64,000 nt of DNA from Amphiscolops sp. MND2022 (lineage: Eukaryota). How positions within the stretch are numbered: the first letter of the stretch is position 1; the number at the start of each line of letters is the position of its first letter. The notes under the pieces are model-generated. The model had not been told where the DNA came from. It was given only the letters and a program-made list of their open reading frames with translations, and made no database searches. The stretch covers positions 8,372,001 to 8,436,000 of the forward strand of contig OZ076409.1 in NCBI GenBank assembly GCA_964187785.1, in the 5' to 3' direction. A program made the position numbers and the translations under genes. Shown in pieces: positions 11,518 through 58,992 of this stretch.

Positions 11518-11646
11518 AACAAGACGAGAACGTCTAAAGTCGGCGCTATATCTGAGGCTACAAAAGCGCAACGTTTTTAAAACATGCTCAGGACGTATGT
11601 ATGAAAGGCTCAGAAAACACTTTCGAGACACCCAAAGGGTGCATTT
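11518..11646 (-). mobile_element. HINE fragment interrupted by the 17-kb LTR element (continues ~28622-28735)
   Basis: Starts aacaagacgagaacgtctaaagtcggcgctatatc. Family-like sequence (aagtggaccgatcagtgtgagg...ggtcactgtaat) resumes after the 3' LTR. Confidence 0.6.
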
Positions 11647-11915
11647 TGTACTGACCTACATTAATAACCAATAGTATTTAGATGTTTATAGAATGTTCTA
11701 GAATGTACATTTATTTGTTATTGAATGATTGTAAATCTCTACTCCCTCAGAGAGAGAAAAATAATATTCAGTATTCAGTTGACTTCCTTTTTGTTCTACT
11801 TCTAACACCTCGAACTAGTTGTAATAAAGTAAGCTAGCTAGCTTGTCTCCCAGCCGCTTTTAGTAGTTGTGTATAAGAACAACCAAAGAAGTAACCAACC
11901 ATTAAAAGCAGCACA
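11647..11915 (+). repeat. 5' LTR of the giant element
   Basis: tgtactgacc...gcagcaca; 4 substitutions versus 28353-28621; contains AATAAA. Confidence 0.95.
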
Positions 11916-11918
11916 ATT

Positions 11919-11932
11919 TGGTGCGACTTGTA
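11919..11932 (+). promoter_or_regulatory. Putative primer-binding site (tRNA not assigned)
   Basis: TGGTGCGACTTG begins 3 nt after the LTR end; TGG is complementary to tRNA CCA. Confidence 0.6.
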
Positions 11933-13634
11933 AAATTTCTTGCCTTTTCTCCTGGATGATTTCTCTTCTCTCAACAATCATACAAATACCACTCTCTATA
12001 TTTGAAATTCTCTGGAATTGCAGTGAAATCTTTCTAGAATTCCTTGAAAGTTTAGTCTGTGACTTTCTGAATTCCATCAATAAATACATCATCGTTCGAA
12101 ACACAATTTCTCCACTACAAAAATCAATTTAAATATAACAAATTTTCTTCACTACCGGTTTATCACGTTTTCTAACGTTGACACGGTTCTTCTTCCTGTT
12201 TTTTTTGCCATACCGGTTTATCACGTTTTCCAATACGTTGAAACGGTTTCATTTCGGACTGATTTATCCAAAGTGACACAGTTCTGTTCTCTATACTGAT
12301 TTATCACAGCTAATCCGGAAGCTTGTTGAAACAGTTCTTTGACGTTTGTCTGGTTTATTAAGGTTTTCTAAAACCTTTGACACAGCAACTTTCTTCAATC
12401 CTGCTATCTTGAACGTCAGGTGGACTCCTGGTGTAATAGTTGATTGAGTGCATGTCCAACTCCGCTCACCTATAAGCACATACGTCTCAAGATCAACTTC
12501 GTGTTGGCAGAAAACCTGGATTTTCTAATTTTACGTTTCGGATCCACTTTCTACAAAATTTCCTACAAAAAAAATTCAGAAATAGACTCTGAAAACAAAA
12601 AAAGGCAACCAAACTAACTACAAAAAACAACCACGCACTATTCCATTTCTTTTCCTATTGTCGACAAACAATACAAATAAATTCACAAAACTTAAATAAT
12701 ACAAGTAACTTCAAAAAATTTCAATAACCAACAAAAATAACAACACAAAGTACACTCAACCTTATCTCTAGTACTTTCAATGGTAAAAATTTTAACATAA
12801 TCCTACAAAACAATTATTTTAACAAAATACCACATACAATTCTCACAACTCTTTTGCTTTAAAACTTAAAATAAGGCATGTAAATAACACAAACACAGTA
12901 AAGTTAGTTTTTTACTTTCAGGCACCCACAATTCCTATCCCCTCCCGTAAGACTTAGCCAATCAGACAGCCTCACCAGCTTACTCTGATTCTAAGACTGA
13001 CTAAAAACCTTAGTTAAGTGTAAACGTCTTTAAGGAGAATCGAGAGGACACCGAACTACGTTCGAATCTTCAAAATTCTCAGAAAGTAAAAGTAAAAGTA
13101 AAAGAAACAAAGATCAAACTTTGATCTTGATCAGTATTGATCAGACTTTGGATAGTGGACGTTGATTGTTCAGAGTTCCACTCCCTTAGTCTTAAAACAC
13201 ACAACCCACTTAAAATTAAAACAATCTTAGTTTTTCTGGACGTGTCAGTAACCTTATGTTAGACACCTTAAAGTGATCCAGACTTAAAATAACATTTAGT
13301 TTCTGTTAGCAATCCTTTGAGGTTGAATACAGATCCTACTGCATCCGCTTCTTTCTTCTCTATCCAAAACTATTAACTTCTCAAATAACATCAAATTACA
13401 ATACAAATTATAAGAACCCTAACATATACAACCAAGCAATTTATCCTTTCAACTTTTACATTTCGCCAATCAGCTCCCTTCAAAAACCTACAGCAAACGA
13501 TTTTGAAAGAATAATTGAACGATATCAACAATATTTTTTCTTTATCATAAATCAACAACGACATTACCCAAGAGCTCCAACTTAGAAAATTTCTATAAAA
13601 ATCAATTCGAACGTTCTCACCTTCACATTATAAC

Positions 13635-13748
13635 ATGTGGAAAAAAGTTGCCACAGTAGTACTCATTACAACATACACGTTTTGTGTCTTATTTATAGTT
13701 TGTGTTCTTCTTGAAAAAATACTTACGGTGATGAGAGACAAACTTTAG
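13635..13748 (+). CDS. 37-aa hydrophobic small ORF just upstream of gag (signal-peptide/TM-like)
   Basis: Hand translation MWKKVATVVLITTYTFCVLFIVCVLLEKILTVMRDKL*; stop lies 4 nt before the gag ATG. Confidence 0.45.
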   Translation: MWKKVATVVLITTYTFCVLFIVCVLLEKILTVMRDKL

Positions 13749-13752
13749 AAAA

Positions 13753-16700
13753 ATGTCCTTAACAAAAACCTATTTACCTTTTCAAACCCCCATCATTAAA
13801 AATGCAAAAGTTGTAAAATTAGAACTAAACCCATTCCTACAAAACATTATTTCACATTATACACAACCACTCCCATTTGAAAATGAACCACACACAATTG
13901 AAACAATCCCTCTTATTAGAGAACATTTGGACACATACCTTTTTTATATTAGATACAAAGTTTTAACAATCACCGAAGAATACCCAACTTTTCAAATCTC
14001 CTTTCTTCCACAAAAACTTAATTCATCTCATATATACAGAAGAACAATAAATCCAATAAACCTTCAAGTTCCTATTAAACAAGTTTTTCATGCTTTTCTA
14101 AACAATGTAAAAGACCACAACTTAGCACAGGAAATTCCAAAATTTAGTCCAAATGCACTCGACGATCTTCAACGATACATAGACAATTTCGACGTAGAAA
14201 TTATCGAAAGATTAGTTAATGCTGAAGATAATCCCCATCATTGGTTACAAGCTGATATATTACGAATTCAAAATTTCATCTACCATTACTTCAAAGACTT
14301 AACATTAAATGACCAAACAATTCCTCAGATCAAAGTAATATCTTTATTTCTCAGAAAATACTTCAGATTTAATTATCAACTATTATGGTCACAACAAGAT
14401 CAATCTGCTTTTACAGCATTTCCAGATCATTTTACATTAGAAGAATGTTTACCATTCATCATCAGTGAACAAAATGAACATCATTACTTTCATAAACCAC
14501 ATTCAATTACAAAACAAACCTTAGATTACATACGTTTCGATCCTCTATTAATTACAGAAAATGATCTATTCGCTGACAATAGACCTTACCACTATGAACA
14601 AAATTCTCAAAATCAACAAAATTGACATTTTAACACTAACAATTCTACTGAAGATGATAACACCGATCAGGAAAATACAACCCAACAACAAAATCAACCT
14701 GAAAACTATAACGATAATGAGTTTACTACCCAAGAATCTACAATTTCAACACATAATCCATCACAAACAGGGACATCAACATCAGTACATACTCAATCCT
14801 TTAGAGTTCCCACTAGAGTTGTAAACCAAAGACAAACTACACATAGTCCTCAATCTCACTTAGCTACATCTCCAAACCGTAATATAACTTTTAACCTTCC
14901 ACATACAGATGACACACACGATGAAACCCATGATACATTCCAGGATGATATTCTAACTACATCTAGTGTTCAGAATACTTCTGTTAATGTTGCATCTCCA
15001 ACAAGAACTAATCCTGATTATACAAGATACATTACTCGATCTAGATTTGATCCTCCATCAATTCCCTCCGCCTTTCGCTCAAACAGATCGACCTCTTCCA
15101 ACAACAATTTTAATGATAATCCCCAAACTTCCAACCGATATTACGATCCGTTTAATTATAACTTTTATCCTCCATCAAATACAACTACCAATACAAATAT
15201 CAACCAACATCACTCTCAAATTAATACAACTTCAACAACACAAAACCCCTTCATACAATTATCAAATACCAATACTTCACAGAATATATATTCTCGAAAT
15301 CAAGGAACCTCGTATCCTTCCACTTCTTATTCTAATATCACACAGGATTCTCAAAGGAGACTTCATAACCCTCCACTTACACATATACCAACTGATCCTC
15401 TGTATCAAATGCATCCAAATCCAACTCCTAACCCTAATTCAAATCCATTACCACAAAATACAATCCAACATATACCTCCACCACTCACACAACAATTAGC
15501 TCCTCCACCCCAATATTTACCAATGCCACAAGATACTTTTATAAACATGTCCGCTTCAATACCAGAACCTATGAAACCTTTTGATGGTTTGGACCATTCT
15601 TACACCCCCGAAGAATATCTACAACAAGTCGAAGCAAGATTAACCTTCGCCATAGGTGAAGAGCCTCAAAATAATCCTATAAAATACAAATCTTGGCACA
15701 ACAGACGCATGGCTTACATACAATGTTCATTAACAGGAACAGCTCTCGATTGGTACACTAACCTCCATATATCATATAAACAACAATGGAATTCTTTTGT
15801 ACAATTATTCAAAAAACAATTCTCATCTCAAAAAACTGCTTACTACGCTCAAGTAGAAGCTATGTCACTCATGAAAAAGGATAATGAAACAGTTCGCCAC
15901 TTCGCCCTTAGAGTACAACAAATAGTTAAAAAGGGATGGTGTAATGAAAATGCAGCTACCATAAATCTCAAAAATTATGAAATCTTTACAAAAGGGTTAC
16001 CAAAGAAGTTAAAAAATTTTGCCCATAAATGACAAGTTAAACATGTATCAACATTACTTGAACCTTCAATACCATTTCATACACTTTTTAGACTTGTCGA
16101 TTCTGAAGATATTGTTAATGAAAAAATTATAACTAACGACTTAGCTCTAGAAATAAACAAAGTATCGCTTGAAGATGATACTAACAAAAAAGAATTTGAA
16201 CATGAAGATCAGATAATGGTTACTCAATCTGGAGACCCAAATAACAAAAGCAAACCAGCGTATAGAAAATATTGTTTCTATTGTCACAAAAATAATCATA
16301 GTATTTCAAATTGTTATCAAGAACAACGTGATGACGAATACCAGAAATACAATAACCAAAGATCACGAACTCCTCAACAATCCTTTGTACAATATTTTCG
16401 CAGTAAACCTAATAATCCTCAAGAAAATCGAAATGACAATACAAATCCTTACTCCTCAGATAATGATCGTAATAAATATAATCAAAATTACTATAATGAT
16501 AGATACAGAAACAATGATAGATATCGTAGCAATAGTAGAGAATATTCGCAAAACAACTATAGATCAAACTCTCGACAAAGATATTATAATCGATCCCGAA
16601 GTCCGTATAGATCTCGATTTGATAATTATTATCAAAGAAGAACTCCATCTAGATCTCCATATAGATCTCCATACAGAAATAACTCAAAATACAGATATAA

Positions 16701-16926
16701 TTCTCGCTCAAGATACAGATCTCGTTCTCAATCACAAGGAAACTCCTTCAAACGATATAATTATCCACATAGATCTCCATCAAGACCTAGAGATTTTAGA
16801 TCAAGATCTAGAACACCCTCAAGAAACAGACAACAAAACAGAATAAATCAAGTAGACGTTAAATCTGCAAAAGAAAATGATTGTACAAAATTTGAAATTC
16901 ACACCTGTCAAATAACAAATAGCTAA
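13753..16926 (+). pseudogene. gag: Very long gag (~1,050 codons, internal stops at 14623 and 16030)
   Basis: ORFs 13753, 15409 and 16216 share one frame, and 14626-15408 is stop-free. Capsid-like MKPFDG...LTGTALDWY...F, CCHC knuckle CFYCHKNNHSISNC, RS-rich tail. Confidence 0.85.
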
Positions 16927-19900
16927 TACAATCACTCCTTATAGTTGGTTTTATCCACTATATATTCACGCTTCTGAAACAAATGATAACATATTACCTT
17001 CAAAATAGGAAATCTTATTCCTCTTAGATACTGGAGCATCCATATCTGTTTTGAATTTACCAACATTTCATGTAATTTCCAAACAATTAAACATCAATGT
17101 TCCAACTAACCTCCAAAACAAAAGAGCCAAAACTCTTACAGTTGCAAACCAAACTGAAGTACCAATAATACATTATATTTCGATGACCTGTTTCACTGAA
17201 GTAAATCACAAAACACGATCATTCAATATCGATTTTGACGTTGCAAATATCAAATACAACATTCTTGGAACACCCTTTTTCAAAAAGCACATCCAAAATA
17301 TTGCTTTTCAACAAAATATTATGACATACATAGAACAACATCCAAAGCTTCCAACAAAAACAACATTTTCCACCTTTACAGAAAAAGATTACCCATATAC
17401 TTCTTACATTTATACTATTAAATGTAAGGAACCAATTCACTTTAAACCAAGGTCAGGAAAAACCATAGATTTCCCAATTAAAAACTATTTAAATTTACAT
17501 TTTGAACTTGAAGATAATACAAAATTCTATCCAACAAACCCATATACATATTTCTTACAAAAATTCAAAAATATCTTTCATTTCTTAGATATGATAGTCA
17601 ATGAAAAAAGCAAAGACTCATGTGCAACCATAATTCAAAACTTTACATCTTACCTAGCTACATTACCACGAGGAATTATTGGATATATAGAAATACCTAT
17701 TACTCAAACAACTCCTCCTCACTACAGAGTTAACGATGTAAATTCACTTTTTTCACTCTGTAATACATGCGTATCACCCTGATACCACAACTCCGATTCA
17801 ACAAAATTCTTATGTAGATATGAACTTATGTACTAGGGTAACACCACAATCCCTATTAGAAATTAACAAGATAGAAATCAACGACAAAACACTTCAACTT
17901 CCTATACCTTCTGTTACTGGAAACCTTCGACCCTGAGATAAAATTCGAAAAGATTTCCCTCCATTACCCTATTCTACAGAAAATCAACAATTCAAAAAAA
18001 AGTTCAATTTTGAATACTCAGATTTAACCGATACAGAAAATGTAAACCTCTGCAATATTCTGATTAATAACCAAAATTGTTACGCCAAACATAAGAACGA
18101 CGTAGGAAAGATTTCTACTCCCTTTCGAATTAGAATAAAAGATAATTGTAAACTTCACACACAAAGACCTTCTAAAGTACCTATTCACTATAGAGATAGA
18201 CTAAATAAACTTTTATTAGAACTTGAAAAATACAACATCATAAAACAAATTGGTTCAACAACAGATGAAAAACATACTATTGGAACAACATTTTTCAACC
18301 CTTTAATTATTATCCCAAAAGGAGACGCAATAAAAGTTGTCTTAGACGCAAGACATCTAAACTCAAACACTAACCAAGAACTTGAATCTTGGCCTATTGA
18401 ACCTTTAGCTCCTCAATTAGCTAGAGCCAATAAAAAATACAAATCAACTACTGATCTAATGTATGCATATGCTCATACACCATTAGACGAAGAAACAATT
18501 AAACTTACAGGATTTTCATCCGGTGACAAATTATACGCCTTTATCCGTGGATCTTATGGATTAAAAGGACTTCCAAACTTTTTTTACAAAACAAATGTCA
18601 ACTTTCTTTAGATCGCTTATAGACAAACGTTCTGCGTTAGTTTATATCGATGATATTTTATTACTCGCAAACGAAAAACAAGAAATATTTGAACTTATAA
18701 AAGAATTACATACAATAGCATCTCGAGAAAATCTCAAACCTGCACCTGAAAAATCATTCTACATGTTACTCAAAGTAAAATTCCTTGGACATGAAATTGG
18801 TAACAACACAATTAAACCAATTCCATCCAAAATTGAAGCTATTAAAAGAATTCCATCACCAAAAGAAAAGAAAGATGTTATGCAAATTCTTGGCCGTGTT
18901 AACTTTTATTCAAAATTTATTGAAAAGCTTCATATAAACCTTAAACCATTGTATACATTACTACATGATGATGTTAAATTTCAATGGACACCTGAATTAG
19001 AAAAAATATTTCAAAATGTTAAAAATACAATGACAGCAAACACTGAATTAACAATACCCAACACCACGCATCCATTTTTCATAACAGTAGATGCTTCGTT
19101 AGTAGGTTTAGGCGCAGTCTTATTCCAAATGAACAAAGAAAACAAGATGAAAGTAATCTCTTATAACTCCAGAATTCTTAACACACAAGAACAAAAACTT
19201 TCAACTTTAGATAGAGAACTTCTTGCAATAGTTTACGCACTGCAAATATATGAATTTTTGATCATTGGATCTCCTCATCCTGTATACCTCTTCACAGATC
19301 ACAAGCCTTTACTACATTGTTTCGCAAAGAAAGGAAATCTTAGTCCTAGATTCTATAGAGCACAAATGCAACTAACCAAATTCTCCAAACTAAAAATCAT
19401 TCATACCCCTGGAAAAAATTTAACTGTAGCAGATACGCTTTCACGAACCTTTACAAAAGAACAGTTACAAGTACACCAATTACGACACAAACAATTACCA
19501 CCTCAAATAGATTTCTCTATCATGAAAGATAATCAACTCAAACCAGTACATTATTTAGTAAAACATGAAGAAATAAAATATAATCAAAAGAATGATTGTC
19601 ATCCTATCCTTGCTGACTACAGAGACGACCAATTCTCTATCCGTATAAATAACAAAGGAGAAGAAATACACATAAAGCCTTTAGATTCCTTCTCTTTTCA
19701 ATCTATTGTTCCAATCGAATCAAAATATAAAAAGCCTACAAAAAACCAAGCAAAATCTCTTTTACAACAATCGACAATTCTTAATGATACTGACATTCTT
19801 AGTGATGAAGATGAAATAACTCAATCAAATAATATCCAACAACAAAACTCAGACATAGTAAAAGAACACACCCTTGCTATACAATATCCTACCAAATCCG

Positions 19901-21798
19901 ACTATTGTAAACAACAAGTTCCATTTTTTGATCCATCCTTTTTCAAATACAAAAAATATTTTAATTACTTCTTCCTACCAGAAGGTACACAAATAACCAT
20001 TGAAACAATAAAAGCTCAACAAAACCAAGATACTGTTTTACAAAACGTTTACCAATGGATACTTAATAATGAAAGACCCTTACAAATAGACAAATAGACC
20101 CAACAATTGCAGCTAACTCTTTCTTATTATTATATTACAAAATCTTCAACCAGTTATATATTAATCATGATACAAAAATTATCTACATAGATTATCCTAA
20201 TCTTCACGATTCCAACCCGAATCAAAGTGACAAAATATGTCTACCAATTAAACTTTTCCACGCAGCTTTTAACAAATTTCATGCTCATGGACATTCAGAA
20301 ATAAAAATATCCATCAAAGCTTTCAACCAATTTTACTTCATACCGTACTTGAATAAATGGATGTCAATATTCATCCATGATTGCATTGAATGCCAACAAA
20401 ATAAACATATTAACCAAAAATTACAAACTGCATCTGTACAAACCTTCTCAGAAAATGCTTCATATTTTAATTACCGAATATCAATGGATACAAAAGGACC
20501 TATAAACCCACCATCAAATCAAAATTCATACATTCATGTTATAGTAGACGCTTTTAGTCACTTTGTAGTAACAGTACCTATAAAACAAAAGAATGCTCAA
20601 ATTGCTGTTAACTCATTACTACATCATTGGATAACAAAATTTGGACCTCCTGTATATCTAGTTACCGACTGTGGAACAGAATACATTAATTCAGAATTTG
20701 CAAATCTTTGTACCACAATGGGAATTAGACTTTCAACAAGAACTCCTTATGCACCATGGACAAATGGTTTAGTTGAAAATCAAAACAGAAATCTTGGAAC
20801 TCATCTCAGACTTTTCTTACATATCACTCCAGAAAAATTGGTCAACTCAAGTTCATATGTATGCTTATGCACATAATTCACAACCACTTTCTGAAGTAAA
20901 CTTATCTCCATATGAAATAGTATTCCATACTATACCCAGAATTCCAATCAACTTTGAACTCAATCTCCAAAGAAATACATATAGAAATTGTACTTCTCAA
21001 TATTGTCAAGAATTACCACTTCATACACACTATGACAAATCAAATCTAAACCCTTTCTTTCATACAATTTTATCTAAACCAATTCCACAATGGATCTTAA
21101 CTACTGAAACTGCTATGATACAGATATACCATACGGTATATGAAAACACAAAAAGAAAGATTAATTCCTATGCTTATTTTAACAAAACATATCACAATCC
21201 AAGACCCTTAGATATTGGTACATTTGTACTAAAAAGAAATTTTCTCCATGTTCATTTTTCCGATAAATTAAAACCTCTCAGAATTGGCCCATTCAAAATT
21301 ATTAACAAAATCTCCGACATAACATATGAAATTGTTAATCAAGATGGTTATACATCGCACATACATAGAAATCATTTAATTCCTTATCATCCAAAAGAAC
21401 CAGTTATTTTTCCTTTCCTACAACAATATAATCCTCATTTATTTAATGACTGTCATTCAAATATAAACGATCAAATAATTAACTCTGATGAAGACAAATT
21501 TACTGACGAAGAACAATTTCCTTCCACAACATCTAATAAAGAAACGGATATACCATTCACGATTGACTTACAACCAGAATCATTTAGCCAATATTCTTCA
21601 TTTCCATATAAACAAAAAGAACAAATTTCTCAAAATACCTACCTGGATAACCAATCAGATATTCATGACTATGTTAATTTTATTAATCCCCGAAGACACT
21701 CCTATAATAGATACAATTTCCGCCCACAACCAAGAAAAGACTACCGACTTTTCCTTGGTGAAAACGATATAATTTCACTTTCTCAAAAAACCTGCTGA
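16922..21798 (+). pseudogene. pol: pol: protease, RT, RNase H, integrase (several frameshifts and stops)
   Basis: LLDTGAS (DTG 17027-17035); YIDD 18643-18654; RNase H TVDAS / ELLA / TDHKPL; integrase H..GH...CIEC, MDTKGP, VTD, GLVE; GPF motif. Confidence 0.95.
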
Positions 21799-22186
21799 AA
21801 TACGGAATACAGAAAAAAGCACATAAAGAAAATTTGAAAGAAAAGCAAAAGTTTGAAGCTTACTGTGAAACTGAACAAAAAATATTTCACAAGTGATAAT
21901 AAACGAAAGAAATCGATATGAAACTATATATATTTTATAAATTGAAACAAACTACCTTAACACAAAGATTTCAAAATTGATAGACATATTCACTTGCCAT
22001 CATCAACCACAAATAACTCTTCTTCTAGTTCAACACATTCACACCAAAGATTACCTAAATATACAGCATATTTAAACTCAGATACAGACATACTGGATTC
22101 CTAATCCTCAAATCCCAGTCCATCCGCTCCATATACTCCTGATAGAGTACCAACAACACCCACCAATTCTGAAAATCATATTTCAG

Positions 22187-24417
22187 ACCAAGATCCTAAC
22201 ATTTTAAACTTGATGGTATCTCATTATGATTGTGCAAAACAAAACAACTTAGAACCATGTAAACAAGCACCCTCAGATATACAACACACAAAAACCCAAG
22301 CAACAGTTTATGTTAGAGCAAAAGCTAAAAGAATAAAAGCCTTTAAATGCGAAGCATATATAAAGACTGAGAAAGTCTGGTGTTCACAAACATTCACATC
22401 TAGTAGACGATATGATCGTTTACAATGGGGACAAAACACATTAGAACTTCCAAAAATATTGGACCCTATTGAATGCAAAAATATGATCAGATATTTAAAC
22501 GCGACTGATAGTGAAGAACTAAACAACTACAAAATACAAAGTTCTTTCTCATTGTTCGACGATAGTAATTATCAAAACACAATTGAACGAATTCAGACAC
22601 CATTTAGAGTAAAAAAATTAAATACATGGCATATTGGAACCTTCGTATTTGATGAAAATTATCCTGACTGGATAGTTAATGTTACACAAAATACATACTC
22701 CAGATGTCGATCAGACCGAGAACATTTAATTACCCGACAAAGTTGGAAACTTAGAATTGTTAACACCGCAATAGATTATGACGATAAAAACAATCAATTA
22801 ATACATGACGGACACATATTACCATGTTATCATTCAGACGGATTTTGTAAATCAACGACCAAAACTCCATATACATTAACATGGTTTGATGAAAAATTTT
22901 GCCTCATATTTCAACTTCAAGAATTCATTGGTAGAATGACACGAATCAAAGATAGATATTGGATAGAAACCGATACCTTCATTGAAACTTCAAACATCAC
23001 ATAAAAACTTCAAACCGAAGGAATACAAGGAACAAGATATCCTAATGTAAAAACACCACAATCAAAAGTAAGCAATCCAAGCCTTTCTCGATTTGAAATA
23101 TACCCAATTGCACAAACCTTCTGTGGAAAACCTGAACCATTATTTTCAACACAATACGATGACATCTTTGTTACATACTTAGATGGTTTTGATATGAACA
23201 CAGGATTACCAAAACCACACTCAATAATTGACCAAACAATTAGTGGAAATATAAAATATGATGATTCAAACAAAAGGTATATATTCCCTGCATTGAATAT
23301 ATCAAACAATTTCGCCACTTTAGATTATGATGCCCATATTAATACAAAGATTGATTTCACAATAAATCATGTATTTAAATCCATGACAGTACAAGAACTA
23401 AACACTCTTCATACAATATGTGAACTGGAAAGAACTCAACTATTAACGATCTTAGCTATGTCAGTTAAAAATCCTCAATTAGCCGGTTTTCTTTTAACTG
23501 GAAATCGTAGTAACTTTCTCTAAGTTGAAGGATCTACAGCATGGCTGTATGATTGCCCTCATTTTATATCACCACTATACAAGGCAGACAAATGCTTTGA
23601 TAGAATTCCTATACACTACAGAGAAACGATAATGTATGTTGACCCAATAACAAGACAAACTTTTAACTATGCAACACCAATTGAATGTGGAAATAACCCA
23701 CAAAATGTAATAGAATTAGATCCAGATTCTAACGACGGAGATTTTTATGTGTTAACACCAGAACCACTTCAACGAGAAGCACCACAAATGTTTGAACCTA
23801 CCCAAATTAAAACAACAATCACTCCTAATACATTTACCGCCCAAGATGCCGGTATATACTCAAATGCAGAATTAGATCAATTCTGGAATAGAGTACTATT
23901 TGCTAAACATTCTGACACAACTCTCCAATTACTTGGAAAATCATTAAGCTATGATTTCATCTCAATGCATAATGATAAACACTCATACTCAGGACATAAT
24001 CCCTATAATCATTTAAGGATTGGAGTACATGACCACTTGTTAAACCTTTTACCACTTTTTAACCCTGACTGGTTCAGTCAAGCATTCATTAATTTCTTTA
24101 GATATCCATGTTATGTTTTAACTCAATGTGGAATTTATTTTTCAACATTTCTTTTCATTAGAGAAGTTTTAACATTTTTACTCAAATTCTACAGAACAAT
24201 TAGCATAAAATATAATCTCCAAAGCAACATTTCCATTTTGAGTTCAATAGCTCATGGATTTTTTAATATAGTTACATCGGAAATGGTAACTGATTTAAAC
24301 AATACAGTAAAACGAAAACGGATATATACTAAACACAAAATTACAACAAGTGAAAATGATAATATCCTATTGCCGGAAAAAGAATTAAACAATAAACGAA
24401 GACACTCTGATACTTAG
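22187..24417 (+). pseudogene. env: env-like glycoprotein, class III fusion protein-like (chuvirus G / herpes gB type); in-frame stops at 23002 and 23521
   Basis: ORFs 22210, 23194 and 23632 share one frame. Motifs HYDC..PC..FKC..WC..IEC, then CELERTQL...NPQLAG...WLYDC...KCFDRIPI...YVDPITR...IEC. N-glycosylation sequons; C-terminal TM segment CGIYFSTFLFIREVLTFLL. Confidence 0.8.
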
Positions 24418-24931
24418 TCCCCTTATTTACCTCCTAAATATTCCAGTAAGAATTCAACATTTCAATCACCGCAAAAGACACACCCAACTAATGTAAACGA
24501 TATTAATTCTCAGGACTATGACCCAATAATGTCAAATGTAATAGCTGTACCGGAAAGTCCTGCTAAAGTCTTTATAAAATTCAATCCCTCCTAGCTGAAA
24601 AGCAATAACTTAAAAAACAAATTAACCTCAGAAAAAGTTCAAAAAATTATCAACTAAATTCTTCTCAGTAATAACTTTCATTCAAACCCTAATTCTCACT
24701 CGGACCGGTCTCTCCTTTTCAACTCAACAACAAATTCACTTGCCCACCACAACTCAACTCTCAACCAGAAGACTTCAACTGGATTTTCAGTCCATCTAAA
24801 AGACCGAAATCACAGAAGTTTCTATTCCTGGAATAGATGCCACTGTGATTGTTGATGTTTTCAACCCATCATTGACTCAGTATTCCCATATTGTAAGTAC
24901 AATTTAAACTTTAATTTTAACAAACAATTTA

Positions 24932-26290
24932 ATGGATAGAAAAGACATAACAAAATTTTTCCTTATTATTCGAAATAATATAATCAAACGTTATAATCAT
25001 TATTTTATCGTTATAATTGATGTAGTTAACTCTAATCCCTCTGAATTGCTTGCATCCCCTTTGAATATAACTATTCAAAAAAATGTTAACGAAGATAATA
25101 ACTCTTCTTCCAACTCTCAAGACCCCATAGCAACTAATCCTATTGAACAAGTAGATCATGTTAACGCAAGATCTCAAAAAAGAAAGTACCCAGATATAAC
25201 TGCAGATAAACCTTTTATGGAATCTGGCGCTTGCCCTCCTTTCATAAAACCAATTAAACAAGATGAAGATAGAGATTGTGAATTAGTTCCTATTCTCTCG
25301 TCAAAACACTTCACCTTTCAATCTCAGTTAACTTCGTTATACATGATTCCAACAAAATATAAATTCATCATCAGAGAATTTAAAAATGATTATCATACAT
25401 CAATTGCTTCAAAATTGATTACCCCATATGATTGGTGGTTAAACAATAAAGTGAAAACTTTCTCATTCCAATACAACTTCCTCAGACCATCTCCATATGA
25501 TCTTCGAACCAAAGAAAATGATGCAAATTTTTTGCCATACCAAATCAAAAAGGCTCACCACATGACTTATCAAAAGTTTCTTCAATATAAAGAGCCCGAT
25601 AATTATATATTCTTCATCTCCAAATATACATCGCCATTCACTTTCAACTCAGAATGTTTAATAGATCATACCAAAACAAAAGGAAAACTTAGAAATTATG
25701 ACCCGCTGAAACAAAGTTTTCTCTTCCTTCCAAAAGATAACCCAAAAAGACCAATCATTGTACCACAAGAATACCTCATTCTGAACGACGATTCGTTACT
25801 ACAAGAAGATATACCTCAACATATATCTGATCCTCTTCCTTCACTTCAACATATAGCCTCTCAACCTTTGGGAGACTGTGAAAAATCTTATTTTCACGCA
25901 ATGACCAAAAAGGGATATTCGAATAATGAATTAATTTTCATTATTTCTCATCTGCTTTCACTTCTTACAAATGGAAATCACAAAGAATATAAAAAGGCAA
26001 AACAAGAATCGCCTAAGAAAACCAAAAATGATATTCCTCAACCACAAAGTTTTCGCCCAACAGATGAATTACAGAAATATACAGAAATCCTGAATATCAT
26101 AAAACCGTACCATCATCCGAACCGAGATATTCTTATAACAATCGCTGAAATCGTAAATACCCTTGAACAAGCTCGAAGCATAATACAAAATATCGTATTT
26201 GATACGACAAGAATTAGCCAATCAGCTTTGTGCATTCGCACATCTTTAGACGAATTCAACTACACTATTGAAAAAATGCATCGATCTTAA
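24932..26290 (+). CDS. Uninterrupted 452-aa accessory ORF of unknown function
   Basis: ATG-initiated, stop-free, same strand and A/C-rich codon bias as gag/pol; no motif recognised. Confidence 0.7.
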   Translation: MDRKDITKFFLIIRNNIIKRYNHYFIVIIDVVNSNPSELLASPLNITIQKNVNEDNNSSSNSQDPIATNPIEQVDHVNARSQKRKYPDITADKPFMESGACPPFIKPIKQDEDRDCELVPILSSKHFTFQSQLTSLYMIPTKYKFIIREFKNDYHTSIASKLITPYDWWLNNKVKTFSFQYNFLRPSPYDLRTKENDANFLPYQIKKAHHMTYQKFLQYKEPDNYIFFISKYTSPFTFNSECLIDHTKTKGKLRNYDPLKQSFLFLPKDNPKRPIIVPQEYLILNDDSLLQEDIPQHISDPLPSLQHIASQPLGDCEKSYFHAMTKKGYSNNELIFIISHLLSLLTNGNHKEYKKAKQESPKKTKNDIPQPQSFRPTDELQKYTEILNIIKPYHHPNRDILITIAEIVNTLEQARSIIQNIVFDTTRISQSALCIRTSLDEFNYTIEKMHRS

Positions 26291-26635
26291 TTGGTAATTA
26301 TGGGATAATCACTTTAAAATTGTTTACACTTATTTCTTAATCTCTTAACAACCTATCAAAATTAATTGAGTCTATACGTATATGCCTGCTATGCACGATT
26401 ATAATACATGCTTGATGTTAAAATACACTTTTAAAATAAAATAACACAAAAAATTTCAATCACGACATAAAAATTTTCAACAAAATTCCTCAATTGCTCC
26501 TCCTTTTAATGGACCGATTTCAACAAATAAGTACTTATATGAAAGATATTTAAATACCCTTCAAAAGACTTCCAAAATACAACAACCTAATTCTTAAAAT
26601 TAAAAAGTTATAATATCACAAAGTTCAATAAAAAA

Positions 26636-27289
26636 ATGTCAACTACGAAATTCTATTTTCAAAGGAACTTTATTGTAAACAAACTAATCTATTTTAGGTG
26701 AATATCGTCACAATTGCTTCTGCAGCATTCCTTCCTCCTCTCAGGTCACCCATTCAAGAAGAATTCCAAAGTATCTTCTACAACTTTCAACGAAATTTTC
26801 CCATTCTTCAATATGACAACTATTCATTCTGGCGACATAGACTGCCCGATAGCTCCTTTTCTTTCAATCTCTTCAGCTCGATTGCGATCTTTGATCCTGA
26901 AAAAGCATTTAACGACATTAAATGCGCAGCTTAGAACAGACAAAAAGGCAGACCCACATCTTACAAGGATGATATTGCTTAATATGTTCCAAATATTCCA
27001 AATAACAAGAATAAATTTCGACCAATATCTCCATATTCATAAACCTCCTGACACTTATTCAACCCAACGAGACGCCACTACCCAAACAGAACATACTACC
27101 GTCAAGCCCAAACGTTTAGTACGAAATCTATCCAATAGAATGCGTTCTGAAATGGAAAAACAACGTCTAAATTCTTATTGGCCTTCAGATGATAACGATG
27201 ATACTGACGAAGAACTTCAAAAAGACCCTCCAGAAGCACTTATAGATGATAATTACCCGCACAAAACATATACTTACGTTTCTTTCTAA
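26636..27289 (+). pseudogene. Second accessory ORF (~217 codons, one internal TGA at 26699)
   Basis: ATG 26636 is in frame with ORF 26714..27289; acidic C-terminus. Confidence 0.5.
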
Positions 27290-27840
27290 TATCAACAGAC
27301 GCCATCAACAGCACCCGTCCACTCCCATCTTCGAATCCCACATCTTCAACGATTGATCGTCGCAGATCAGCACCCATCTTCAACTTCATCGCCGCCCAAC
27401 AGTGCCCATCTTCATTCATTTGCTGACCCTTCTTCATCCATCTTCCAATCTTCAATCGTCACCCATCCAATTCTCAGCCGAAGATGATCGATAATTAATA
27501 ATAAAGAAAACTCAAAGAAAAACATTGTGCATGATAACATTTCGAAAAGTTTCAAACTCATCTAATATTTAGAGAATTCAAAACTCTTACCGAAAATATA
27601 CACTATGTAGTTAATATTTCAAATTTCATCCCCACCCACATTTATTTGCCCAAAAATCCTTTATTCACACCCGTACCGATATTTATTTGCTTTATTTTTA
27701 AAGAATATTTAGTAATAATTATTATTTTTCGGTGCTATCCTATCCAAAAAATTCACAAATATTATCAACAAATCTTTCCAAATTTCAACAAAACCAGCTC
27801 AAAAGTAGATCAAGCACATTGTTCAAATCAAATTCGAATA

Positions 27841-28140
27841 ATGACAAACCCAAATTCTCGACGTTTTCAACATTTGTTACATAACAAACCCGCCAAAGTT
27901 AATCACAACCTGAAATCTTTTCAGACAAATTTCACGCTCGATGGAAAAATTTTCTCTTCTCAACGATATTATTTCAATGACTCTTTGACCTTTAACTCGT
28001 ATGATGTTTGCTCACGTTTGTTCAATGCGAAGTTTTTTCAAAAACTTCAACAGAAGCATAAAATTGAGCATCTACCAGTTCAAAAACAAGCCGACGAAAG
28101 CATAGTGAAAAAGAACACTTTGACGCTTTTTGAACTGTAG
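27841..28140 (+). CDS. Third small accessory ORF (~99 aa)
   Basis: First ATG in ORF 27646..28140 (MTNPNSRRFQ...), shortly before the 3' LTR. Confidence 0.35.
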   Translation: MTNPNSRRFQHLLHNKPAKVNHNLKSFQTNFTLDGKIFSSQRYYFNDSLTFNSYDVCSRLFNAKFFQKLQQKHKIEHLPVQKQADESIVKKNTLTLFEL

Positions 28141-28352
28141 TCGCACCTACGAGGTGTCAATCAAAATTTTGACAATTCGAGGTACACCAATGAGTCGAAC
28201 TTACACCACTCTTAACGAGACTTATGCCAATCATCCATCTAATGAAAAATGTTAACTAGCTGAAACGCTAAGAACATTTAAACAAAAATATTTCTTCATT
28301 TCAATTAATGATGCTACTTTAAAATTTTATTTTATTTAAAAACCGGGATGGA

Positions 28353-28621
28353 TGTACTGACCTACATTAATAACCAATAGTATTTAGATGTTTATTGAAT
28401 GTTCTAGAATGTACATTTATTTGTTATTGAATGATTGTAAATCTCTACTCCCTCAGAGAGAGAAAAATAATAATCAGTATTCAGTTGACTTCCTTTTTGT
28501 TCTACTTCTAACACCTCGAACTAGTTGTAATAAAGTAAGCTAGCTAGCCTGTCTCCCAGCCGCTTTTAGTAGTTGTGTATAAGACCAACCAAAGAAGTAA
28601 CCAACCATTAAAAGCAGCACA
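28353..28621 (+). repeat. 3' LTR of the giant element
   Basis: Direct repeat of 11647-11915, preceded by an imperfect purine tract aaaaaccgggatgga. Confidence 0.95.
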
Positions 28622-29243
28622 CTTTCATGCTCGATGAGACTACTGGCGTTAGTGATTTCAGGAGTTTCTCTGAAAAGTGGACCGATCAGTGTGAGGTCTT
28701 TGTCTCGAGAAAAAAAGGTCACTGTAATAAGCATCCTGTATTCTCGGCTCTGTGAGGTCTTCTAACTGCGTCATTTTAATGGCTTTTTATCTTTAGCATC
28801 TTTATATGCCTCTGCAGTAGTCTTGATAGATATATACAAAATTTGATCTCACAACGACTATATGAAAACCTGGCCATTACGTTCGTCCTCAACGATTTCG
28901 TATGTGTCTGTTTTCATTTTTCCTATGTTCATTGCGCGTTTTGAATGCTCTACAAATCATCAAAGTTTCGATCACAGAATTTTTGGCCAACCTATTGATC
29001 TTGCTTTGAAAAAAAATGATGTTTCATGAATAATTTCCTGTCAAAGTCGAAGGTCCTTGAGTTGTCGGAAAAAGTTAGTTGCGCCTATGAGTGCCTATGA
29101 TTTCAGGGAAAAATGCCCGACTACAGCAGTGACCTTTTTTTCTTGTTTTTCTTCAGACTACAATCCTCACACTGATCGGTCCACTTTTTAGAAACAATCC
29201 TGAAACAACCTAAGGCCAAGAAAAACTTAGTCCAAAGGGGCCC

Positions 29244-30994: not shown

Positions 30995-31288
30995 GGCCCC
31001 TTTCATTTTTTACTTTCTCAAGGAAAGTTACAAAGCCGGACGTCCCTAAAGGGTCCCCCCTTGGATTTTTTTCGGTACTATGCGGCGTTTTCGAAAGAAA
31101 AAAATTAAAAAAATTTCAAGTGTTTCAACAAAAATTTTTTTGACTTCAGACGGTCTCGTCTTGTTCAATCCGGTCAAAGTGACAATTTCGTGCCAGATGC
31201 CAAAATCAGCACCGAATGCCCAAATCTTTCAAATGCTCCTTCCTTTCGTTTTTAACTTAATTGGAATTCAAGGTAATTGAGGGTTCAC

Positions 31289-35745: not shown

Positions 35746-36229
35746 TTTTTAGTCGGCGCTTTTATAAATAAAAGAGCCCGACTATTACAGTCACTCGTTT
35801 TTTTCTTTTTTTTTTATTTAAGACAGACTCGAAGCGACGAACGTTAACGTTCAATTAAAGGAAACTAAATACCAGACAAACGCATGTAAATTATTGCAAA
35901 GGATCCCCTTAGGTTTTTTACTTTTCAAACGTTACCTACAAGCCCGGACGGGACTAAAGGGTCCCCCCTTTCAATTTTTTTTGGCACTGTGCAACTTTTT
36001 TTCGAAATTTTTTTAATGTCCCAAGGGGTCCCCCCTTTGAGTTTTTTGTTATTTTGCTACAGAATGCGTGTTTATAAATCAAAAAGGGCCCCCTTTTACA
36101 TTTTTCGGCACTGTGCGACATTTTCCGAAAGAAAAATTTTTCAAAAATTTCATGTTTTTTCCCCAAAAAAATGTTTTGCGCTTTTTGAGCCTTAGATATA
36201 GCGCCGACTTGAGACGTTCCCGTCTTGTT
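35746..36229 (+). mobile_element. HINE copy
   Basis: ttttt-agtcggcgct...agcgccgact-tg-agacgttcccgtct-tgtt; close inverted relative of 53660-54147. Confidence 0.75.
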
Positions 36230-37237: not shown

Positions 37238-37754
37238 TGTTGGCGCATGACATCACAATGATCGCGCAGTAATTATTAATCCACTTAGCACAGTGTATCA
37301 GTCTTTGCTTTTGAACTGGCCTGCGCGAGTTCGAATCTGCGCCAGTGCTCTTTTTTGTTCCTTTAATCCTCTGACTTAATATTGGCCTCAATATCGATCA
37401 ATCATTTTGGTTGACATTATTAATCTTGCTCATGTTATGTATTATATTAACAACCCATTGCTCACTATTGTAAACGCATATGTAAACAACCCGTTATGGA
37501 TCTTTTTGTTGCCTTGAACTGTAAGTGTGCCATTATTTATTCAACAACCTGTTATTGACCTGTCATCTAACTCTCACTTCTTGAGATCAATTTCATTCAT
37601 TCATACTATCAATAAACATTCTCAAACATAGATCTCTTGTCTTGAGTCAAGACCCAAATCACAACAGTTTGAACTCTATCTTTGAGTTCCTTCAATCCTT
37701 TTAGTTTGAACTCTTTCTTGAGTTCCCTCGTTCTAGCTTGAGAGCTAGAAAACA
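37238..37754 (+). repeat. BEL 5' LTR
   Basis: tgttggcgc...aaaaca; about 3 substitutions plus a short terminal difference versus the 3' LTR. Confidence 0.9.
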
Positions 37755-37755
37755 T

Positions 37756-37773
37756 TGCTGACCTCGACGTGAT
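37756..37773 (+). promoter_or_regulatory. PBS, tRNA-Trp type
   Basis: tgctgacctcgacgtgat matches TGGTGACCCCGACGTGAT (complement of the metazoan tRNA-Trp 3' end, from memory) at 16/18. Confidence 0.75.
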
Positions 37774-40700
37774 GTCAACAGCAGATGGATCAGGAGGTTC
37801 AGACGGCTCTAGTGGTGACATGAAGTTGCCTCAGCTCAAACGATCAAGAGGGGCTCATCGCGGCGTCTTCACAAGACGGACAGCAGCAATCCGGCAAGCT
37901 GGTGGACCGCTCGAGGATGTTCAAGCCACATTGGAGTTCCTGATTGATCGTCGCAAGATGCTGACAGAGTTGGATTCGCAGATCCAACAACTCATTGATG
38001 ACGACGATGAACTAGTAGCCGATGTGGAGGAAGCGGCTGACGTGTTCATGGCAGCCGAAAGGGCTGTGAAGTGGTGTCAGGGCAAGATAAAGGAGATGCA
38101 GCCTCCAAGCATAAGCGGCGCGGCGGCTCCATCAAGTGGCAGTCTGACGACCAAGCTCCCCAAGCTGACCCTTCCTTCATTCAGCGGTGAATACACACAG
38201 TGGGTCTCTTTCTGGGACCAACTCACAACTCTGGTTGACAGCAAGCGTGACATGACCAACGTTGAGAAGCTATCCTACCTCAAGTTGTCACTGAAGGGTG
38301 ATGCAGCTCAGATAGTTTCATCCCAGTTGGTCACTGATGCAAACTACGACATCGCGAAGCGAAAGCTGGAGGAGCGCTACAGCAACAAGCGTTCAATCGT
38401 GAAGGCGCACTTAGCAGCAATCCATGCCCTACCAGCCGTCAAGAAGGAGTCGAGTGTTGAGCTGCGCAAACTATTGGAGTCGACGAACGAACATGTGCAA
38501 GCACTAGAAGCATTGATGTTGCCTGTCAATCATTGGGATGCAATATTGGTGTACTGGCTGTTGGAGAAACTGGATGCCGAGTCGAGGAAGCAATTTGAAT
38601 TAGCGCATCCCGGCACAGATGTGTTAACTTTCAAAGATTTAACTACATTCATGGACAGACGAAGTCGTGCATTGGAATCCAGTGGTGATCAGCCTGAGGT
38701 TTCTACCCCCAAGACGACACCCAAGAAGGTGCATCAAGAAGCTTACTCCTCAACTGTTGAGCACTCAGCGAGTTGTCAGATGAAAGAATGCAGTGGGTCA
38801 CACTCAATCTCTCAGTGTGATCGCTACAAGCAGCTGGGCACAAGTGAGAGAAAGACAGTGGTGAGGAAGCTCAAACTGTGCATGAACTGTCTGGGGCGGC
38901 ATTTCGTGGCTGATTGTCCATCCATGTTCAGCTGCCGCACTTGCAACGGGAGGCATCACACATCGCTACACTTTGATCGTGCAGTCGAGCAGCAAAGTGG
39001 TGTGACAAGTGGTGCAACGTTCAGTGGTCCATCTGTGCTTCTCTCAACAGCAATGGTTGGCATAGACGACACAGCTGGAAAAACATTGATGTTCCGAGCC
39101 TTGCTGGACTCTGGGTGTCAAACATCCTTCCTCGCAGCAGACGCTGCATCAAAACTCAATCTTGCACATTCAACAGTAGACGTGAAGATCTCTGGGATTG
39201 GTGGACGGCAACAAGCAGCCAAGGAGTCTGTCAGTCTCCTAGTGGGTCCACAAAAGTTGCCTGTTACAGCACTAGTGCTGAGCTCAATCGCAGGTAATAT
39301 ACCTTCTCAATCAATTAACTTAAAACAATTAAAGTCAATGAAAAGTGTAGCACTAGCAGACAAAAACTTCCATCAACCTGGTCCCGTTCAATTGCTGTTG
39401 GGCGCGGATGTGTACGATGATCTCTTTCTGGACGAGAGGAAGAAGCATCATGGTCTTCACTATCGCAAGTCTATCTTTGGCTGGGTGGTCACTGGAGTGT
39501 TGTCCCAAGTGCGTGCCTACCAATGTCGAACCTTTCAAGTTGCAGTGGAACTGGACCTTACTCGCTTCTGGGAAGTTCAAGAGATTCCTCGAGTGAAGCC
39601 GATGTCTCAAGAAAATCGTCAATGTGAGGAACATTACGATACCACGACCTATGTGGCAGATGACGGCCGCATCACAGTTCGTCTCCCTTTCAAGTCTGAG
39701 GCACGTCCCTCAAACAACTTTCACACAGCAAAGCAGAGATTGTTCGCTTTGGAGCGAAAACTCAAGGATCACAGTGATGTGAAGCAGCAGTACCATGACT
39801 TCATCAAGGAGTTTGTAGACATGGGTCACTTGGAAGAAGCTCCTCAGATTTTAGGCTTGTGTTACTACTTACCCCATCACTGTGTTTTCAAGGATAGCAC
39901 AACGACCAAGCTCCGTGGCGTGTTCGATGCCAGCAGCAAATCCCCGAATGGCAACTCGCTGAACGATTGCCTATTGCTTGGACCCCGCTTGCAGGACGAA
40001 GTATTTGATATTCTCATTCGCTTTCGCCTACACCAATATGCCTTGTCGGCAGATGTAGCAAAGATGTATCGACAAGTGGGTTTAGACAAATCAGACCGTG
40101 ACTTCCATCGAATTCTGTGGCGTGACTATGTGACAGATGAGATCCGAGAACTGCGTTTGACCCGTGTGACGTACGGTGTTGCCAGCTCCTCCTACCATTC
40201 AACCCCAGCACTTCAAGAGAGTGACAAAAATCATGGACCCAATCCGAACACAGTAAAAGTGATTCTCAACGACTTCTGGGTTGATGATTTACTGAGTGGG
40301 GCTGATACACTAGAGGAAGCATGCGTGCTTCAAGACGATCTGATTGAAACCCTCAACAAGAACTGTCTCCCACTACGCAAGTGGAGCAGCAACGAACCCC
40401 AACTCGTCACTCGCCTTTCGCAAGACCTTCACGAAGCTGGCAAGGCTTACGAAATCAGCAATAAAACCCATCAAATCAAAACACTGGGACTGACGTGGCA
40501 TCCTCTAGAGGATCACTTTGTGTACGCAAGTTGTGGTGAGTATATTTCAATCATTACAAAACGAACCTTACTCAGTGATGTTTCAAAGCAATTTGATCCA
40601 ATTGGCCTCATAGCCCCAGTTCTCGTAGTAGCCAAGGTCATCATTCAGTCTTGCTGGAAGTTGGATCTCGAATGGAACGATGCAGTTCCAGATGATGTGT

Positions 40701-42823
40701 CACGGGCATACACAAACTGGAAAGATGACATGAGCTCACTATCACAACTCAAGATACCTCGGAAGGTGCTGCCAACCCACTTGTACGACGAAGCATCCTT
40801 GCAAGTCTTCTGTGATGCCTCGGAAAAAGCATACGGTGCCTGTGTTTATCTGGTGTCAGTCAAAGATGATATCGTCTCCTCAACCCTCATCTCCTCCAAA
40901 TGCAAGGTGGCTCCGATCAAACCCTCAACTCTCCGTCGACTCGAGCTCTTGGCAGTTCACACGGGTGGGCAAACTTGCAACAGCAGTCAAGGCGGCACTA
41001 TCAAAATCAAAGCACGCATTTAACATTTCTGTGTTGTACTCAGACTCAACAATCGCCCTCTCATGGATCAAGGCAGACCCAACTCGATGGCACACATTTG
41101 TGTCAAATCGAGTGTCCCAAATTCAGTCAAGGCTCCAAACAACTGAATTCATTCACGTACCCTCAGAGGAAAACCCAGCCGATCTGTGATCACGTGGATT
41201 ACTAGCAACACAGTTGGTGGCTCAACAAACGTTCTGGTTTCAAGGGCCATCGTGGTTGAGATCATCAATTCTTGACCAACCTCAAACTCTCCTCACAAAG
41301 GAGGAAGCCCGCCAAGAAGTCAAAACATTGACAGTGCTAACTTCGCCCAGTAATTCGTTAGTAGACTTGGACAATTTCAACTCACTAGTGAAGTTGTTAA
41401 GAACACTGTGCATTTGCAAAGTAGCGTTTAAGAAAGATCTCAAGACGATCTTTGGCCGGGAGGAAATGGCTCTCGCCTTGTATGCGGTGGTCAAAGCAGA
41501 TCAGATGGTACACTTTGAAGCCGAGTTCAAAGCCTTCTCAAATGGTGAGTCGATCAACCGGAAGAACTCAATTGCACCCCTTTACCCATTCAAGGACAAC
41601 GGCATCATCAGGGTCGGCGACAGACTGGCCCACGGGTACTCAATGACTGACGATCAGCGGTTTCCTTTACTGGTGTCACAACGAAGCAAACTGGCTACAC
41701 TTGCAATCAACGATGCCCACAAACGAACTCTTCATGGTGGTCCCACAGCAACAGTGGCAGAAATGAGACGTCAAATTTGGGTCACTCAGGCTATGAAGAA
41801 GGCGTCAGCTTGCATCAAGAAGTGTGTTACGTGCTTCCGATTGAACTCAGGTCCAACGCAGCAGCTTATGGGTGACTTGCCTTCGAGTCGCATCGAGGTT
41901 CCGAACATGCTTTCTCTTGTGTGGGCCTCGACTTCGCAGGACCTTTAACATTTAAAAATGGAACTGAATGTGTCAACGGTTACGTAGCTGTGTTTATATG
42001 TTTTGCTTCAAAGGCAGTTCATCTAGAGGCAGTATCATCATTGACGTCAGATGCGATGGTGGCAGCCCTAAGACGATTCATTGCAAGACGAGGCATCCCC
42101 AGTCAAATTGTGTCCGACAACGCAACCAACTTCGTGGGTGCAAGGCGTGACCTCAACGAATTGGAAAAAGTGGTTCGGTCAGGGGCACAATTATACAGCA
42201 GCATTGAATGGCTCTTCATTCCTCCTCGCTCACCCAACTTCGGCGGACTATGGGAAGCAGCGGTGAAGTCGATGCGCAGAGTCATGGGCAATTCCATTCT
42301 CACTTACGAGGAGATGACAACCATTCAATGCCAAATAGAACAAATCTTGAACAATCGTCCCTTGATGGCTCTCACAAACAACCCGGATGACATCTTTGCA
42401 CTAACCCCGTCAACGCTAGTCAATGGCAGCCGATTGGATGCTATCCCACAGCCCTGTTTGCAGACGATGGATGCCCGCGGGCATCCAGCAAAACGATTTC
42501 GCGCTCTTCAACAGCTACTCTCTCAATTCTGGAAGCGATGGGCTTCTGAGTATGTAGCGTCACTTCAGCCGCGAGGCAAATGGCGACAAGAGCGTGCAAA
42601 CCTCTCAATTGATGACGTAGTGCTGATCACAGACAATGGCATTCCACCACTACAGTGGAGTATTGGTCGAGTGATGCAATTGAAGCTTGGTCATGGTGGC
42701 CTAGCTCGCGTGGCATTGGTGAGAACATCGCGCGGTGAATTCACAAGACCTGTCAGCAAGCTGAGACGTCTACCAATTAAGGACAATGACCTCCACAAGG
42801 AAACCATTGAATGCACACAATGA
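37772..42823 (+). pseudogene. BEL/Pao gag-pol polyprotein (frameshifts ~40965 and ~41915, stop 41187)
   Basis: KLPKLTLPSFSG; three Cys/His knuckles; RALLDSG; RT FWVDD; RNase H FCDAS / RLEL / SDS / ENPAD; integrase LDFAGP, SDNATNF, GGLWE. Confidence 0.95.
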
Positions 42824-43374
42824 GTAGCAGCATGAATGACAATGAAACTGCGTGCTGTGGCTTAGTGGCAAACGTTAAAGCAACAGTTAGACCATTAGAT
42901 AACCGTCAGGTCGGATGTTCGAGCCCTGCTCACGCCCACACTCCTACCTCACCTCTGGTGAGTAGGTTCCCAATGTCCTATGGGAACTTTGCTCAGATCT
43001 GGATTCCTTCCTCACGGGGGGGATGAAGGGGGGGGCGAGGGAGGAGGTTTAGTGTGTAAAGAGAAGAATAAAAGAAGCCAGCCACTATTTCCAAATTTTT
43101 CTGCAGCTGCACACACCCAACTCAATTACTCGAAGTATACCCAATCCCTTTATGGACGATGATGGTGCAGTGGTGATTTCAATATTCCCTCATCAGAAGT
43201 TCTGGAGTTCGAATCCCCGAAACACAAAGTTTATTTTGTCTTCCTTAAACTCAAACTCATGACATTTACTATTTGTATTATTATCGAGTGGTAGCTATTC
43301 ATATTCTTTTAAATTGTATTAGCACGAGTGCTAATCATATATTAAATGAAGCTGATACTTCATGGCCGGCGGGA

Positions 43375-43894: not shown

Positions 43895-44052
43895 GTTGCT
43901 GTTATCCGATGGTATAGCAAACTATCCCATGAGACAGAGGTACCCTACGGATCGGTACAGTGAGGGATTCTGCTCTGATCCAATAGTTGGTGGATACCGT
44001 TTTGTGAGAAGCATGGGTATTTTTTTAATACAAAGTTTTGTCACTTTGGTAT

Positions 44053-54147: not shown

Positions 54148-54296
54148 TCACTGAAGTTAGTTCATGAGCTTTAACGCATAGATTTTTTCAATCACAATCA
54201 ATGATTATAACTTGACTTTTAATTGCAATTATTTTCTTTTCGAACACTGGTAAAGCCATCAGTTTAACTTAAGAGCAGATATGTTGGCATGACTTA

Positions 54297-58974: not shown

Positions 58975-58992
58975 ATAATCAGACAACATGTC

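Follow-up and report, generated by a model that had tools for sequence, protein, structure and literature searches.

The window analysed here is a stretch of 64,000 nucleotides (nt) from the Amphiscolops sp. MND2022 assembly GCA_964187785.1 (contig OZ076409.1, positions 8,372,001 to 8,436,000 of the forward strand). It contains a 17-kb long terminal repeat (LTR) element (11647-28621) in which three open reading frames (ORFs) lie between env and the 3' LTR. An initial annotation, made from the letters alone, had located these frames correctly (24932-26290, 26636-27289 and 27841-28140, all in sense orientation) and proposed that they encode accessory proteins. This proposal holds for ORF1 and ORF2, which occur in hundreds of copies, have fixed lengths, are found together and alongside env, and show purifying selection as judged from protein changes; it does not hold for ORF3.

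Table 1. Features of the LTR element and of the three frames downstream of env (aa, amino acids; PBS, primer-binding site; pLDDT, predicted local distance difference test).
Feature	Position	Strand	Basis or remark
5' LTR, 269 nt, TG...CA	11647-11915	+	265/269 positions same as 3' LTR
PBS-like stretch, TGG start, 3 bases past 5' LTR	11919-11932	+	sequence
gag-pol	13753-21798	+	Pfam; tblastn with natural family members; frames
env, Monjiviricetes_fusion-family fusion glycoprotein	22036-24591, start approximate	+	PF24664; extent from family members
ORF1, accessory gene A, 452 aa, stop-free	24932-26290	+	family-matching part 25016-26290; first 28 codons not family start
Basic cluster, putatively nuclear-localisation-signal-like, directly before conserved core of ORF1	25175-25189	+	homologue scan
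Predicted small beta-barrel of SH3/Tudor/KOW type	25634-25804	+	
Predicted short helix and 52-residue amphipathic helix, coiled-coil-like	26063-26284	+	pLDDT 81-92
ORF2, accessory gene B, 158 aa, intact, without a known family	26813-27289	+	family clusters
ORF3, 99 aa, probably non-coding 3' region or decayed frame	27841-28140	+	
Purine-rich tract touching 3' LTR	28338-28352	+	sequence
3' LTR	28353-28621	+	repeat comparison with 5' LTR

The host element and its damage

The element is an env-carrying LTR retrotransposon of the Ty3/gypsy type, as its LTRs, PBS-like stretch, purine-rich tract and gag-pol order indicate. Its gag-pol comprises an unnamed 290-aa N-terminal domain, the Gag core, protease, reverse transcriptase, RNase H and an integrase with an SH3-like tail. 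Pfam matches followed the Ty3/gypsy order (Retrotrans_gag, RVT_1, RT_RNaseH, Integrase_H2C2, rve, SH3_Tf2-1), with a weak match to protease (E 0.2). In natural family members, gag runs into pol in a single frame starting at 13753 (tblastn). With two stops read as X, env matched PF24664 above the family cut-off (E 9.5e-21), and by this similarity it is the post-pol ORF related to a viral fusion glycoprotein that characterises errantiviruses; a sequence search of PDB gave no match to env. Strand composition is uniform throughout the inner region of the element (A about 0.35-0.40, G about 0.09-0.14) and this uniformity ends at the LTRs. The ORF1/ORF2 region shares the composition of gag-pol and env, and the flanks differ from it. 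When the flanks were checked for a target-site duplication, 4 nt on either side matched at 3/4 positions.

The copy in the window is defective. In gag-pol four stops and five frame changes were counted, and in env three stops and one frame change, which agrees with the damage to gag, pol and env reported initially (13 lesions in about 10.6 kb, or 1.23 per kb). At this rate a gene of 1.3 kb has a probability of about 0.20 of carrying no lesion, and the intactness of ORF1 in this copy is therefore no evidence of recent selection; the caution that it could be due to chance was justified. The LTRs are 98.5% identical, which suggests that many copies of the family are young. Set against merely four LTR differences and flanks matching at three of four bases, the 13 coding lesions suggest that this copy may have arisen from a parent that was itself defective, or by recombination.

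ORF1 and its family

ORF1 is almost certainly a real gene. The family protein has 430-435 aa. The product of the window's ORF1 belongs to a cluster of 705 members, and 11 of the 14 other members listed are 425-435 aa long; the family members looked up all derive from ENA contigs. Among 3981 candidates, 205 clusters of homologues passed E<=0.001, and a profile search against 1.84 billion representatives (50% clustering) returned 322 relatives at the same threshold. Most of the 150 relatives listed are fragments, with identity down to 30%; one distant relative of 447 aa, at 33% identity, is nearly complete. A rapidly built tree (62 rows) distinguished about five deep groups. Four family proteins of 430 aa with 78-80% identity align to P0001 across all 430 positions. 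No relatives were found in IMG/VR or JGI metagenome contigs, and an ESM Atlas search with ORF1 and ORF2 gave no usable match. Paralogy of ORF1 with ORF2, the Gag N-terminal domain or the SH3 tail of the integrase was not detectable (hhalign probability under 1%).

ORF1 had been described as fully intact. The frame is indeed free of stops, but its 5' end is not that of the family, whose N-terminus is absent: in its cluster's representative, residue 7 is the first to align to the window, at 25016 (tblastn). In all 83 homologues with a recognisable N-terminal motif, 3 or 6 residues separate this motif from the protein start, compared with 28 in the window, and four test motifs taken from the first 28 residues of the window's ORF1 were absent from all homologues collected at that point. 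By these comparisons the start typical of the family is missing from ORF1 in the window, and the frame now opens at an ATG further upstream. A 9-nt direct repeat (24989, 25009) sits at the N-terminal junction, suggesting that a local deletion with filler DNA removed the original start.

ORF2 and its family

ORF2 is probably a real gene as well. The single stop noted in 26636-27289 is present after codon 21 and lies upstream of the family start at 26813. The family length is exactly 158 aa in 54 of the 120 clusters listed, including those of 502, 410 and 82 members; the longer 217-aa form of the initial annotation accounts for 13 of the 120 (15 near-identical proteins). In the window the form of 158 aa is uninterrupted and falls in the cluster with 502 members, where 10 of the 14 other members listed have this length. 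Three family proteins of 66-68% identity align over all 158 positions.

A frame of 78 codons (26698-26934) overlaps the start of ORF2. It was rejected as a fourth gene because homologues starting there change frame, and it is read as a probable leader in which an upstream start is conserved. A splice-acceptor-like site at 26692-26697 was not above chance, the element containing 10 such hexamers compared with 9.3 in shuffles.

Purifying selection on ORF1 and ORF2

As a chance control, the bases of 24418-28352 were shuffled 1000 times and the longest stop-free frame of each shuffle was determined (median 85, maximum 185 codons). Measured from stop to stop, both ORF1 (460 codons) and ORF2 (195 codons) lie beyond this maximum, and their open frames thus exceed what is expected by chance. 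Selection was then assessed at the protein level, where private changes served as an internal neutral control for changes shared by at least three copies. Across 29 full-length ORF1 proteins the private changes were evenly spread, and 61 of 210 were conservative (29%; neutral expectation from codon site counts, 32%), whereas 58 of 114 shared changes were conservative (51%, p 9e-5). The shared changes numbered 4-9 per 50 columns in the core versus 23-25 in the linker. For ORF2 (65 proteins, 158 aa) the conservative fraction rose from 61 of 209 private changes (29%) to 46 of 107 shared ones (43%, p 0.01). Exact length is kept between subfamilies at 78% (ORF1) and 66% (ORF2) identity. Together these data show, at the level of protein sequence, that the two sense frames between env and the 3' LTR are kept by purifying selection in hundreds of copies.

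Two points qualify this conclusion: pairwise tests were mostly not significant (two of nine were), and the homologue sets consist of gene-caller open frames only, which biases them towards open frames.

Matching contig sizes among 145 ORF1 and 116 ORF2 records, compared without a chance control, suggest that both genes occur together on 10 contigs. Two of these are small (10.7 and 19.6 kb), the latter carrying diverged forms of both genes, and one contig size of 66 kb is common to env, ORF1 and ORF2 records.

ORF3 is probably not a gene

The third frame is not maintained as a reading frame among its homologues and is likely untranslated. The homologues fall into 56 clusters of 69-166 aa, with the 99-aa form found in one of them (four members), and four different C-termini, derived from all three frames, are shared by 22, 7, 6 and 4 of the 56 clusters. 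One low-depth contig of run X1 differs from the window over 27405-28288 by 49 substitutions and 10 single-base indels, three of the latter within ORF3. The contigs of this run covered the element in patches, and in the narrower of two alignments none lay over ORF1 or ORF2. The 99-codon ATG frame is within chance (25% of the shuffles reach 99 codons). Against a non-coding nature speaks the stop-to-stop frame of 200 codons, which is longer than in any of the 1000 shuffles; a decayed gene is thus conceivable.

Predicted fold of ORF1 and domain searches

ORF1 is predicted to begin with a disordered N-terminal part, followed by a basic patch and a conserved core that contains an SH3/Tudor/KOW-like barrel, and to end in a long helix. 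The basic cluster was present in 8 of 10 homologues picked by motif from 149 scanned; in two further distant homologues that the motif missed, it was weaker or absent. A wide structural search with the predicted fold returned only generic coiled-coil matches to the long helix, and a sequence-profile match to the Tudor family was looked for and not found. Tudor methyl readers have a five-stranded antiparallel barrel with an aromatic cage of three to four residues. Two aromatic columns are conserved at 90% in 20 ORF1 rows, and a cage in the predicted barrel is perhaps more likely absent than present. The C-terminal hairpin weakly resembles Sin3 PAH (E 0.18).

No match to a known retroviral accessory family was obtained in Pfam or PDB with 109 ORF1 and 37 ORF2 sequences, nor did ORF1 or ORF2 match the esterase (GDSL) or exonuclease (DEDDy) families of Pfam. 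NCBIfam gave no credible match for nine proteins, and Rfam gave 0 matches within 24300-28700. Neither ORF1 nor ORF2 has a transmembrane-like stretch (maximum hydropathy over 19 residues 1.14 and 1.17).

Other features of the element and the window

The unnamed 290-aa domain (13753-14625) opens Gag ahead of a long low-complexity stretch and is in frame with the Gag core in natural members, which brings Gag to about 1050 aa. It belongs to a cluster of 62 members and has no Pfam or NCBIfam name. Past the zinc knuckle of Gag lies a long Arg/Ser/Tyr-rich, RS-domain-like tract (16480-16860), and about 150 additional residues without a Pfam match separate RNase H from integrase (19600-20040).

Elsewhere in the window, a BEL/Pao element (37238-43674) has a few stops or frame changes in pol, and the complete identity (100%) of its 300-nt terminal repeats indicates a very recent insertion. 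Two more regions (44048-50037 and 60122-64000) look like decayed retroelements; one is flanked by 222-nt direct repeats and has an RNase H match, and the other has a weak DUF1759 match. A dispersed repeat family with internal sub-repeats of about 170 nt occurs in both orientations (4825-5320, 30997-31134, 35746-36229, 52554-54603 and 58656-58975), and the env-carrying element begins about 55 nt past another of its members (11518-11590).

Comparison with known elements

The following comparisons draw on parts of the cited publications. Gypsy elements with env are widespread in invertebrates (Chary and Hayashi, PMC13524379). The element shares with the gB-type errantiviruses of that survey the order LTR-gag-pol-env, the Ty3/gypsy order of pol domains, its multicopy nature and an env related to viral fusion glycoproteins. 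Those errantiviruses have three ORFs, whereas the element described here, at 17 kb, has a far longer Gag and two extra conserved genes downstream of env. In the main text of PMC13524379 the strings 'accessor' and 'Tudor' occur 0 times; a longer version is listed as containing 'accessory' twice. The closest layout is that of the foamy-like endogenous retroviruses of teleosts (PMC5210030), which likewise exceed 17 kb and have a long gag and post-env genes that are under purifying selection and lack membrane segments. These retroviruses, like foamy virus with bel1/tas and bel2/bet, carry two or three post-env accessory genes, and the function of those in the teleost elements is described there as unknown. 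They are vertebrate retroviruses, in contrast to the present element with its Ty3/gypsy-type Gag and integrase families and short LTRs.

Extra ORFs of plant LTR retrotransposons (Grande gene23, RIRE2, Retand; PMC7264820) are also family-wide, located before the 3' LTR and of unknown origin, and have been proposed to be nuclear regulators. They are mostly antisense or replace env, whereas ORF1 and ORF2 are additional to a virus-related env; as both are in sense orientation, the antisense class aORF-3R was ruled out. Bdelloid rotifers have invertebrate gypsy-like elements with extra post-pol ORFs too (PMC5408684), but their ORF3s, usually one per element, are env, a GDSL esterase or a DEDDy exonuclease, and ORF1 and ORF2 match neither enzyme. 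Odin elements, in the portion of PMC9040795 covered, are without env. Chromodomains are a known chromatin-binding module of gypsy elements (PMC13524379), and the predicted barrel of ORF1 is of the same SH3-like small beta-barrel class as the chromovirus chromodomain, the Tudor domains of PHF1/PHF19 and the KOW domain of Spt5/NusG. It differs in being placed in a separate accessory protein and not in integrase, without a sequence match or an evident aromatic cage. VANC of the Arabidopsis VANDAL elements (PMC5735166, PMC10398659) is a transposon-encoded accessory factor proposed to counteract silencing; VANDAL elements are plant DNA transposons, and the likeness lies in the proposed role, which for ORF1 is deduced. 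No description of this element family or of a Tudor-like extra ORF was found in the literature searched, which left most subscription papers and preprint supplements outside its coverage.

Possible functions of ORF1 and ORF2

That ORF1 could be a regulator or anti-silencing factor, as initially suggested, is plausible in view of its basic patch, predicted Tudor/KOW-like barrel and long helix. By analogy of position with tas and bel2 of foamy viruses and with the plant extra ORFs, ORF1 may be a nuclear adaptor or regulator that raises or protects the expression of its own element, a reading to which we give about an even chance. ORF1 would enter the nucleus via the basic patch and self-associate via the long C-terminal helix. 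Its barrel could use a conserved R/Y/D/K/Q/R/P face, instead of a methyl-lysine cage, to bind nucleic acid or a chromatin or transcription protein of the host. The result might be transactivation, export of RNA or release from silencing, as with Tas, Tat or Rev. Support for these steps decreases in the order given. ORF2 would likely be a small partner factor in an ORF1-ORF2 accessory unit.

Both proteins might instead be structural or RNA-packaging helpers of an enveloped particle, similar to matrix or phosphoproteins and perhaps captured with env from a negative-strand RNA virus. The match of env to the Monjiviricetes fusion family favours this explanation; a disordered N-terminus together with a long amphipathic helix may resemble cofactors of such viruses, and SH3-like barrels often bind RNA. 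It is nevertheless unlikely, as no viral fold matched at E<=0.001, neither protein has a Pfam viral family or a membrane segment, and the basic patch is retained in distant ORF1 clades. Somewhat more doubtful still is the bolder proposal that an invertebrate gypsy lineage reached the organisation of complex retroviruses (gag-pol, an env of viral origin, two accessory genes) independently and that ORF1 is a Tudor-fold reader or decoy directed against chromatin or piRNA silencing, a type of counter-defence not found in the literature searched. That ORF1 is a true Tudor-family mimic, binding methylated histones or PIWI-type proteins and thereby reading or jamming host silencing, seems a little less probable again.

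Non-functional passengers, kept open merely by recent expansion of the family, would be consistent with the near-identical LTRs, the youth of many copies and the low feature recognition in ESM Atlas; this explanation suits ORF3 and is conceivable for ORF2. For the frames taken together it is very improbable in the light of the difference between shared and private changes, the retention of frame and length among diverged subfamilies, and an ORF1 core conserved at 30% identity. It is hardly credible that the frames came into this one copy by insertion of another element or of a fragment of a host gene; insertion of a separate element was a case that the initial annotation had raised against its own proposal. 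That other copies also link the frames to env is deduced only from matching contig sizes, which leaves some room for it, but hundreds of copies exist, composition is unbroken across the element, the listed repeat families show no internal terminal repeats, diverged forms of ORF1 and ORF2 co-locate, and the contig of run X1 reaches to within 65 nt of the 3' LTR.

Implications

The annotation of the region is thus corrected to two genes instead of three, with the start of ORF1 in the window differing from that of the family. The element represents a gypsy-type family that carries env and two accessory genes without a name, of which one has a predicted SH3/Tudor-like barrel. Accessory genes downstream of env are a mark of complex vertebrate retroviruses, and the two genes under selection at this place in a gypsy-type element of high copy number suggest that such a design arose in a second lineage. 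Since the ORF1 family is old (clades at about 30% identity), has no database name and is predicted to contain an SH3/Tudor-like module, it offers a concrete target for questions about self-regulation of animal retrotransposons or their resistance to silencing.
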